DNA from: Escherichia phage T4
Strand: one strand, 5' to 3'
Sequence record: NC_000866.4
Length of the DNA: 64,000 bases
The first letter of the stretch is position 1. Every line of letters starts with the position of its first letter. Shown here piece after piece: positions 1-52,541 of the stretch. The notes under the pieces are model-generated. The model saw only the letters and a list, made by a program, of their open reading frames with translations, was not told the DNA's origin and ran no database searches. The position numbers and the translations under genes are program-made.

Positions 1-2507
<2,507 letters not shown>

Positions 2508-50802: not shown

Positions 50803-50889
50803 ATTATTTTCCTCTTTAATTATTAGCAGTATTGCCGATAGTTGTATAGTACCATAAAGCTTTATGCTTGTAAACCGTTTTGTGAAAAA

Positions 50890-50925
50890 ATTTTTAAAAT
50901 AAAAAAGGGGACCTCTAGGGTCCCC
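50890..50925 (-). terminator. Terminator after gene 32
   Basis: Minus strand GGGGACC-CUAGA-GGUCCCC followed by a long U-rich tract. Confidence 0.8.
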
Positions 50926-50947: not shown

Positions 50948-51853
50948 TTAAAGGTCATTCAAAAGGTCATCCAGGTCCGTGTCATCAGCACTAGATGAAC
51001 TACCAGAGCTTGAGCTCATAAAATCATCTTCAGTTTTTGTATTGAAGTCATCAACATTGAATGCATCCAAATCATCAGCCACTTTATCAGCTTTCTTAGC
51101 AGCAGTTGCAGCAGCACCGCCCATCACAGCAGTTCCCATAACTTGACCGAATTTAGTATTAAGTTCTTCAAACGATTTGAATTTATCTTTAGAAGTCATT
51201 TCAGAAAGGTCAACCATTTGTTCGAACAGTTCTTTCTGGAAAGATTCATCGTCAATGTTTGGAATCGCAGATTGATTCAGGAATTTAGATTCATCGTAGT
51301 TACTAAATCCAGAAACTTGTTTAACTTTCAGTACAAAGTTAGCACCTTCCCACGGACAAGTTACATCAACTGGAGTTTCACCCATTTCAACATCAACCGC
51401 AATCATTGCATTGATTTTATCCCAGATTTTCTTACCAAAGCGGTATTTAAATACTTTACCTTCGTTTTCTGGAGCAGCTGGGTCTTTTACTACAAGAATG
51501 TTAGCCCAGTAAGAAGTTTTACGTTTAACAAGACTGTACTCTTTATTGTCAGTGTTGTATAGATCATTTTTACTGATGTATTGACATACTGGGCAAGAAT
51601 CGTAATCACCATGGGTAGATGAACATGTTTCAATATACCATTTACCATTTTTCTTGAAACCGTGATTTACAAGAATTGCGAATGGTGCTTGTTCATCATT
51701 TTTAGACGGAAGAAAACGAATTACTGCTTGACCGTTACCCGCATTATCGAGTTTCAGTTTCCACTCGCCTTTATCTTCAGAAGAAAAACCTTTATTGCCA
51801 TTCAGTTTAGCCATTTGTGCAGCGAGTTCAGCAGTAGATTTACGTTTAAACAT
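50948..51853 (-). CDS. 32: Single-stranded DNA-binding protein
   Basis: 301-aa ORF with zinc site ([14 protein letters not shown]) and acidic C-terminus; recognised as T4 gp32. Confidence 0.97.
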
Positions 51854-51920
51854 TTTTATTTCCTTTTTAATTTAATTTAATTAACAGTTGGTGCTATGAC
51901 ACTTTACCTCATAGCTGGCA
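51854..51920 (-). promoter_or_regulatory. Gene 32 translational operator (5' leader)
   Basis: Leader reads GCCAGCUAUGAGGUAAAGUGUCAUAGCACCAACUGUUAAUUAAAUUAAAUUAAAAAGGAAAUAAAA-AUG: hairpin GCUAUGA/UCAUAGC followed by an unstructured UUAAA-repeat tract. Confidence 0.75.
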
Positions 51921-52541
51921 TAATTCGCAATACTCTGGGTCTTCGAGAGGTATCCAACCTGAGTTGAAATACTTTACCATCGATTTAGCAGTTGTATCAG
52001 TTATATTTATATTACCTTTAACTCTTCGCCATCCAGGAGTTTTACCGTACAGATTAGAGGATAATAATAACACATAATTCTCGTAAGCAATATGAGATAA
52101 TTTCCAAGACTCTATATTAGCTCGTGATGTTTTCCAAGGTCTAAAATCGTCACGGTTCATATAATTAGCCAATCTCATATGCTCTCTAACTTCCGGGTCT
52201 TTGGCTGGATGAGTTTCACCACTCACACCAAATCCACCACCAGCATATACCAGATTAAAATAGTCTGGATTATCTCTGGCATTTACTTCAAGTTGGTATT
52301 TTCGTTCTGCTTCAATAACATCCAAGTCATCATCAATTTGAATTATTTTAACGCTCGGTTTTTGAAGCATTAGCGCATTCAAAAATCTTTTTTGTTTACA
52401 TGAGCTCCAGTATTCCTTTCCGGAAGAGTCATATATTATTCCGTTCTCAAATGAGCAATTTAATTTACTACCGATATAGTAGTATGGCGGAGTCTTATTT
52501 TTGACACGGTCTTCAAATGTAAACCAATATACTATATTCAT
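51909..52541 (-). CDS. segG: GIY-YIG-like homing endonuclease
   Basis: 210-aa ORF with a degenerate GIY-YIG N-terminus (VYWFTFEDRVKNKTPPYYYIG); lies between genes 32 and 59 as T4 segG. Confidence 0.7.
   Translation of the reverse strand: MNIVYWFTFEDRVKNKTPPYYYIGSKLNCSFENGIIYDSSGKEYWSSCKQKRFLNALMLQKPSVKIIQIDDDLDVIEAERKYQLEVNARDNPDYFNLVYAGGGFGVSGETHPAKDPEVREHMRLANYMNRDDFRPWKTSRANIESWKLSHIAYENYVLLLSSNLYGKTPGWRRVKGNINITDTTAKSMVKYFNSGWIPLEDPEYCELCQL

Follow-up and report, generated by a model that had tools for sequence, protein, structure and literature searches.

The leader of phage T4 gene 32: a known autogenous operator, covariation of its pseudoknot stems and a conserved ACUGU motif

What occupies the 67 nucleotides in front of the start codon of gene 32 in the 64,000-nucleotide stretch of DNA analysed here (hereafter the window)? 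An initial annotation, made from the sequence, had read them as an autoregulatory leader in which a hairpin precedes an unstructured site for cooperative binding by the single-stranded DNA (ssDNA)-binding protein. In our analysis, the element is almost certainly the operator through which translation of phage T4 gene 32 is autogenously regulated. This operator is already known: no autogenous system of translational repression was analysed quantitatively before it, and it was among the early natural RNA pseudoknots. The initial reading was right, but it was textbook knowledge and no discovery. One point that emerged from the comparison of related leaders, the conservation of an ACUGU motif, is possibly new.

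Identity and anatomy of the leader

The 1.7-kb stretch around the leader is 99.8% identical to a T4 genome and has the gene order gene 59, segG, gene 32. The genes, the gene 32 terminator and the parts of the pseudoknot were assigned as follows.

50948..51853, minus strand: gene 32 CDS, encoding gp32 (301 aa), the ssDNA-binding protein and its own repressor
51909..52541, minus strand: segG ORF, a homing endonuclease gene
50907..50925, minus strand: intrinsic terminator of gene 32, GGGGACC-CUAGA-GGUCCCC followed by a U run
51917..51920, minus strand: stem 1, 5' arm, UGCC, -67 to -64, pairing with GGUA at 51908..51905
51916, minus strand: loop 1, a single A, invariant in 9/9 pseudoknot-bearing leaders
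51909..51915, minus strand: stem 2, 5' arm, GCUAUGA, containing the segG stop codon UGA
51905..51908, minus strand: stem 1, 3' arm, GGUA, assigned from sequence and covariation
51900..51904, minus strand: loop 2, AAGUG; 3-7 nt and variable in sequence in relatives
51893..51899, minus strand: stem 2, 3' arm, UCAUAGC, ending at -40, assigned from the inverted repeat and covariation

Read on the minus strand, the interval 51854..51920 corresponds exactly to positions -1 to -67 of the gene 32 mRNA, whose sequence from -67 to -1 (51920..51854) is UGCCAGCUAUGAGGUAAAGUGUCAUAGCACCAACUGUUAAUUAAAUUAAAUUAAAAAGGAAAUAAAA, with the AUG next at 51853..51851. Several T4 records, strain GT7 included, match the 107 nt 5' of this AUG at 100% identity; their annotation consists of CDSs alone. 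The identity with the characterised T4 operator is complete over these 107 nt. The product of the gene 32 ORF matches the Pfam gp32 family (PF08804, 4.9e-67) and, over residues 1-301, the PDB entry 8GME (3e-202), with 1GPC also matched, which places the element in the 5' leader of a gene for a gp32-family ssDNA-binding protein. Since the 8GME chain is full-length (301 residues), the statement in a 2010 review that there was no full-length gp32 structure (PMC3014915) is now outdated. A complex of gp32 with the operator RNA was not among the PDB matches of the protein-sequence search.

The product of segG gave no Pfam match at E <= 0.001. Its stop codon UGA (51911..51909) falls inside the 5' arm of stem 2, as already noted (PMC535899), and the final segG codons encode stem 1. 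The terminator of gene 32 sits 23 nt past the stop codon, and its tail (50885..50906) is the only place in the window, besides the leader, where a pure A/T run reaches 21 nt. Two candidates on the plus strand were set aside: an ORF antisense to gene 32 (51662..51880), which was treated as spurious, and a sigma-70-like site (51896..51924, ATGACA-17-CATAAT with TG) that overlaps the DNA of the pseudoknot and is directed into segG in antisense, such sites being at chance level in the region (8 against 7.4 expected).

The layout of the structured part is S1(4)-A-S2(7)-S1'(4)-AAGUG-S2'(7), i.e. 4+1+7+4+5+7 = 28 nt from -67 to -40. This is an H-type pseudoknot of the ~28-nt kind in which stem 1 has 4-5 bp, loop 1 has one nucleotide and stem 2 has 7 bp. 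The T4 operator has been described as a pseudoknot of ~28 nt together with an adjacent, less structured region of more than 40 nt that holds UUAAA/UAAA elements and the ribosome-binding site (Borjac-Natour et al. 2004, PMC535899), the pseudoknot being located 67 nt 5' of the AUG (Uzan and Miller 2010, PMC3014915). Autogenous repression depends on both operator components and cannot do without the UUAAA/UAAA elements (PMC535899). The footprint of T4 gp32 on T4 RNA extends from G(+3) to U(-70) (PMC535899), which corresponds to 51851..51923 in the window. The assignment to gene 32 autoregulation made in the initial annotation is thus borne out by the gp32 product of the ORF, by the identity with T4 and by an anatomy that agrees with PMC535899 and PMC3014915; likewise, its placing of an unstructured, cooperative gp32 site next to a pseudoknot is supported, the literature describing the same anatomy, mechanism and footprint (PMC535899).

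In the mechanism that would apply to this leader, the mature gene 32 mRNA begins a few nucleotides 5' of the 28-nt pseudoknot. Once in excess of the available ssDNA, gp32 would bind the pseudoknot as a nucleation site and from there polymerise cooperatively towards the 3' end of the unstructured tract, and the resulting array would cover the ribosome-binding site so that initiation is blocked. The role of the pseudoknot as nucleation site, with cooperative gp32 binding spreading from it over the ribosome-binding site, was proposed in PMC535899, and the order of nucleation before spreading is a published inference. In the present study, the anatomy, the identity with T4 and the conservation of the stems come from our own analysis, and the literature supplies the evidence that gp32 binds and leaves a footprint and that repression needs both components. 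Repression assays with gp32, footprints, compensatory mutagenesis of the stems and structure probing of -67 to -40 have all been published, and all favour the operator.

The mRNA 5' end and the A/U-rich tract

Two further elements lie 5' of the pseudoknot.

51921..51925, minus strand: AAUUA around -71, the published RNase E site; position -71 (PMC3014915) maps to 51924
52004..52011, minus strand: TATAAATA, the late-promoter consensus, at -158 to -151 inside segG; a candidate promoter from the consensus alone

The TATAAATA inside segG is the copy nearest to the pseudoknot in T4. In relatives without segG (L082, L083, L086 and L021), the same sequence was found 4-17 nt 5' of the pseudoknot, with positions determined by eye. 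Judged from these positions, late transcripts in the relatives without segG would have their 5' ends at stem 1 or immediately upstream of it. In T4, the AAUUA at -71, which we take to fit the RNase E consensus RAUUW, lies in a comparable place, and RNase E cleavage there would give a 5' end similar to those of the late transcripts. This cut sets the 5' end of the mature gene 32 mRNA, 3-4 nt before the pseudoknot (PMC3014915).

Such an arrangement brings up the question whether the pseudoknot serves mainly to stabilise the RNase E-processed mRNA through protection of its 5' end, with gp32 repression being exerted via the A/U tract alone. The idea draws on the proximity of the pseudoknot to the new 5' end, on the stability of the gene 32 mRNA, which exceeds that of all other T4 messages (PMC3014915), and on the observation by eye that, where segG is missing, TATAAATA or a TATAAT box would place starts within a few nucleotides of stem 1. 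Nonetheless, the pseudoknot has been reported as essential for repression and as the high-affinity site (PMC535899), and we regard a mainly stabilising role as improbable. Since mRNA stabilisation and repression do not exclude each other, stabilisation may rather be an additional function of the operator pseudoknot.

On its 3' side, the pseudoknot is followed by these elements.

51854..51892, minus strand: A/U-rich tract including the ribosome-binding site, -39 to -1; the lattice for cooperative gp32 binding, reported to be unstructured and gp32-protected (PMC535899)
51866..51880, minus strand: three tandem UUAAA with UUAA before them, seen in the sequence
51861..51865, minus strand: Shine-Dalgarno sequence AAGGA, with GG at -10 and -9, seen in the sequence

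The order of elements 3' of the pseudoknot is therefore an A/U-rich tract with UUAAA/UAAA repeats, the Shine-Dalgarno sequence and the AUG. The initial annotation had described about 40 nt of A/U-only sequence with three UUAAA repeats. The repeats and the length (39 nt) are as described, but the tract is not composed of A and U only, since 6 of its 39 nucleotides are G or C (3 C and 3 G, 85% A+U) and its longest pure A/U run is 21 nt (51884..51864). Just 0.43% of the 39-nt windows in the window are equally A+T-rich. The mean unpaired probability of the tract is 0.57, and its predicted pairing is weak. The exact 15-mer formed by the three UUAAA is unique in the window (two matches against 0.2 expected if one mismatch is allowed), and the minus strand of the window holds a single cluster with a TTAAA triplet within 25 nt. 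However, a 5-mer that occurs three times is reached in 66/300 shuffles of the leader composition, and the UUAAA repeats alone therefore represent weak statistical evidence. The repeated-5-mer test was not individually significant for single leaders, and the use of repeats alone to identify the operator was dropped.

In near-identical phages that carry segG, we observed two UUAAA copies in Yersinia phage PST, three in T4 and four in Escherichia phage Elenatom (L097, L098); the pseudoknot is unchanged in all of these phages. They also differ by one nucleotide in the A run that separates the Shine-Dalgarno sequence from the AUG. The sequence AAGG(A/U)AA is kept in relatives.

The drift of the copy number from two to four can be read, together with the frequent occurrence of a threefold 5-mer at this base composition and the different motifs in the leaders of other lineages, as a sign that the tract is a strong, unstructured ribosome-loading region with affinity for ribosomal protein S1, in which the repeats have no specific role for gp32. 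We consider this very unlikely, because the gp32 footprint spans the tract, a requirement for the UUAAA/UAAA elements has been reported, and T4 and RB69 gp32 tell each other's tracts apart (PMC535899). The tract is best viewed as the 3' component of the gp32 operator.

The pseudoknot stems and their conservation

The hairpin of the initial annotation, GCUAUGA...UCAUAGC 5' of the gene 32 AUG, is readily recovered. Both arms are present, the window contains this inverted repeat a single time (0/100 shuffles have it), and RNAfold predicts the hairpin at -7.3 to -7.5 kcal/mol. It corresponds to stem 2. The initial annotation left the strand (minus) unstated and did not name stem 1; its claim of a pseudoknot is upheld by UGCC/GGUA, which forms stem 1 within the same interval, and by covariation of both stems. 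In T4, stem 1 consists of only 4 bp including a G-U pair and by itself contributes about -2 to -3 kcal/mol. For the leader as a whole, the nested fold was no better than that of shuffled sequences (z = -0.93), which is expected of a short pseudoknot followed by an unstructured tail; pseudoknots cannot be scored by ViennaRNA. Because the statistics of the repeats and of the folding energy are unremarkable, the case for the operator rests on conservation and experiment.

Rfam appears to hold no model for the gene 32 operator in its release 15. At a permissive threshold, the leader gave chance-level matches only (scaDm46E3, 19.8 bits against a cut-off of 61). One further sub-threshold match, also at chance level, was to the DUF2815 RNA motif (51851..51909, minus strand, 18 bits against 41.2, E = 0.9) and was driven by UUAAAAAGGAAAUAAAAAUG. 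DUF2815 proteins are phage ssDNA-binding proteins, which makes the likeness a curious one.

To follow the stems in relatives, we used the gene 32 upstream regions of 15 named phages and of 80 loci in IMG/VR. Nine distinct CCAG-anchored leaders were compared, representing Tequatrovirus T4 and T2, Mosigvirus, Winklervirus, Jiaodavirus and four further lineages. A fixed-length construct of 25 columns was used, from which the variable loop 2 was removed to hold the stems in register; the arms of stem 1 were placed by position alone and the 3' arm of stem 2 by complementarity. Over both stems, 95.4% of the cells in the nine leaders were in standard pairs, compared to 24-41% when the 3' partners were slid by 1-3 columns. 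Changes on both sides of a pair were found in 27 cells, compared to 10.1 in shuffles, and the observed covariation score was reached by 0/500 shuffles. In stem 1, the inner four pairs (positions 2-5) were paired in 9/9 leaders, two of these pairs showing AU/UA/GC/GU and UA/GC exchanges, and a fifth possible pair was formed in 4/9 leaders, T4 not being one of them. All 7 pairs of stem 2 were 100% paired in the nine leaders, with compensatory changes at 4/7. The full pseudoknot segments were also aligned with MAFFT, in which the loop-2 gaps fell in the 3' arm of stem 1, so that this alignment was used for stem 2 alone. Because it is structure-blind, it controls for the placing of the stem 2 3' arm by complementarity, and it again gave 100% pairing with compensatory changes at 4/7 pairs.

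Both stems are thus kept through compensatory changes across several genera. This is an independent confirmation of the two stems, of modest value. Compensatory mutagenesis of stem 1 that restored gp32 binding is reported in work cited by PMC535899. That the structured element is instead a simple GCUAUGA/UCAUAGC hairpin beside an accidental UGCC/GGUA complementarity is hardly credible: RNAfold does predict the hairpin alone and stem 1 of T4 is short and weak, but stem 1 is paired with exchanges in all nine leaders although its arms were set by fixed position, and the NMR structure of the T2 pseudoknot has two coaxial stems (PMC3014915).

The pseudoknot was absent from the examined leaders of Karamvirus, Gelderlandvirus, Krischvirus, Slopekvirus, Pseudotevenvirus, Biquartavirus, Muldoonvirus and Gaprivervirus; for Krischvirus (RB49-like), its lack has been reported previously (PMC535899, PMC3014915). 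Inspection by eye suggested a variant pseudoknot geometry in L025 and L026 (about 1410..1460), with an 8-bp stem 1 (ACAAUGAA/UUCAUUGU) and GGUGUAG/CUACAUC as stem 2. Another possible variant, likewise seen by eye, is that of Acinetobacter phage Morttis (L092, about 400..470), with GGUGUAC/GUACAUC as stem 2 and a possible bulged stem 1. Many of the relatives with a marine cyanophage-type gp32 (L029-L081, about 40% identity) have a TTGACA-17-TAATAT promoter within -75 to -1, and 3' of it a conserved block, AUUAUGAA..GUGGAYAAG, is followed by AAUAC(A) repeats that run into the Shine-Dalgarno sequence. RNAalifold returned no consensus structure for 20 marine (cyanophage-type) gene 32 leaders, and an architecture of hairpin plus repeats was rejected as demonstrably general on this ground. 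A search of 20 related loci at the Rfam gathering threshold gave no usable match, and no family for the marine leaders.

The ACUGU motif and comparison with known systems

Immediately behind the pseudoknot, the T4 leader contains a short sequence that recurs in many of the relatives.

51884..51888, minus strand: conserved ACUGU, -35 to -31, within ACCAACUGUUAA directly 3' of the pseudoknot, seen in the sequence

Within -60 to -1 of 30 leader types, which are phylogenetically non-independent, 40 copies of ACUGU were counted compared to 1.7 expected. The motif is present in 25/30 leader types, nearly always with a copy at -21 to -35, and often within AACUGUUAA. A 13-mer, CACCAACUGUUAA, is common to T4, T2, L021 and Acinetobacter phage Morttis, the gp32 of which is 65% identical. 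In L006, L010, L011, L014, L020, L084 and L085 the sites lie at about 1440..1490, and in the other loci they lie at -21 to -55 from the gene 32 ATG.

In phages whose gene 59 abuts gene 32, three ACUGU fall within the final 13 codons of gene 59 (KQLFIKTVKNCKY), in frames 2, 0 and 1. These triple-ACUGU tails (L006, L010, L011, L014 and L020) end 10-27 nt before the gene 32 ATG and are found in lineages without the pseudoknot (Karamvirus, Gelderlandvirus and others). At synonymous sites, these final 13 codons are conserved more strongly than the gene body, with 87% identical codons compared to 55%, the compared pairs being non-independent. With a gene 59 that stops farther upstream, the codons of the tail are different, and ACUGU is found in the intergenic leader instead. 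This pattern suggests a constraint at the RNA level in the gene 59 tail, reaching about 50 nt 5' of the gene 32 AUG.

ACUGU is not mentioned in PMC535899 or PMC3014915, and among the searchable papers none pairs it with gp32. We tentatively propose, while considering it the less probable outcome, that ACUGU, usually as AACUGU(U/A)AA, is an undescribed conserved determinant of gene 32 leaders in many T4-like genera. If so, the triple ACUGU of gene 59 might act as a gp32 operator that does without the pseudoknot, or be where another factor acts on gene 32 expression. The motif bears on a question left by PMC535899 and PMC3014915, namely how gene 32 is controlled in T4-like phages without the pseudoknot.

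When set beside known systems, the element is closest to the T4 gene 32 operator itself (McPheeters et al. 1988 and Shamoo et al. 1993, as cited in PMC535899), from which it shows no difference: the sequence from -67 to -1, the pseudoknot, the UUAAA tract and the ribosome-binding site are identical. The T2/T6 pseudoknot (PDB 2TPK, as cited in PMC3014915) has the same stem 2 (GCUAUGA/UCAUAGC) and single-A loop 1 as T4. The 3' flank of the T2 pseudoknot (L082), ACCAACUGUUAAUUAAA, is also the same as in T4. However, T2 differs from T4 by a 5-bp stem 1 (UGACC/GGUCA), a 7-nt loop 2, two UUAAA instead of three, the lack of segG and the presence of TATAAATA 17 nt 5' of the pseudoknot. The operator of RB69 (Mosigvirus) has the same architecture and the same autogenous repression as that of T4 (PMC535899). 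In RB69/Mosigvirus (L012, L083) the pairing of stem 2 is kept via a U-A to C-G exchange, and the tract is longer than in T4 and contains units of the UAAAU/AAUAA type. The gp32 proteins of T4 and RB69 give different footprints on each other's RNA (PMC535899).

More distant likenesses are found outside gene 32. The operator of T4 gene 43, encoding the DNA polymerase, also lets a replication protein repress its own mRNA via a structured element 5' of the ribosome-binding site (PMC3014915), but this element is a simple hairpin with a specific loop, and neither a pseudoknot nor cooperative spreading is involved. Escherichia coli rpsO, the gene for S15, shares with gene 32 an operator pseudoknot and an RNase E site near a stop codon (PMC3014915). 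The two differ in the way initiation is prevented, in that S15 traps the ribosome on a pseudoknot at the ribosome-binding site, whereas gp32 occludes the ribosome-binding site as it polymerises from a pseudoknot that lies upstream of it.
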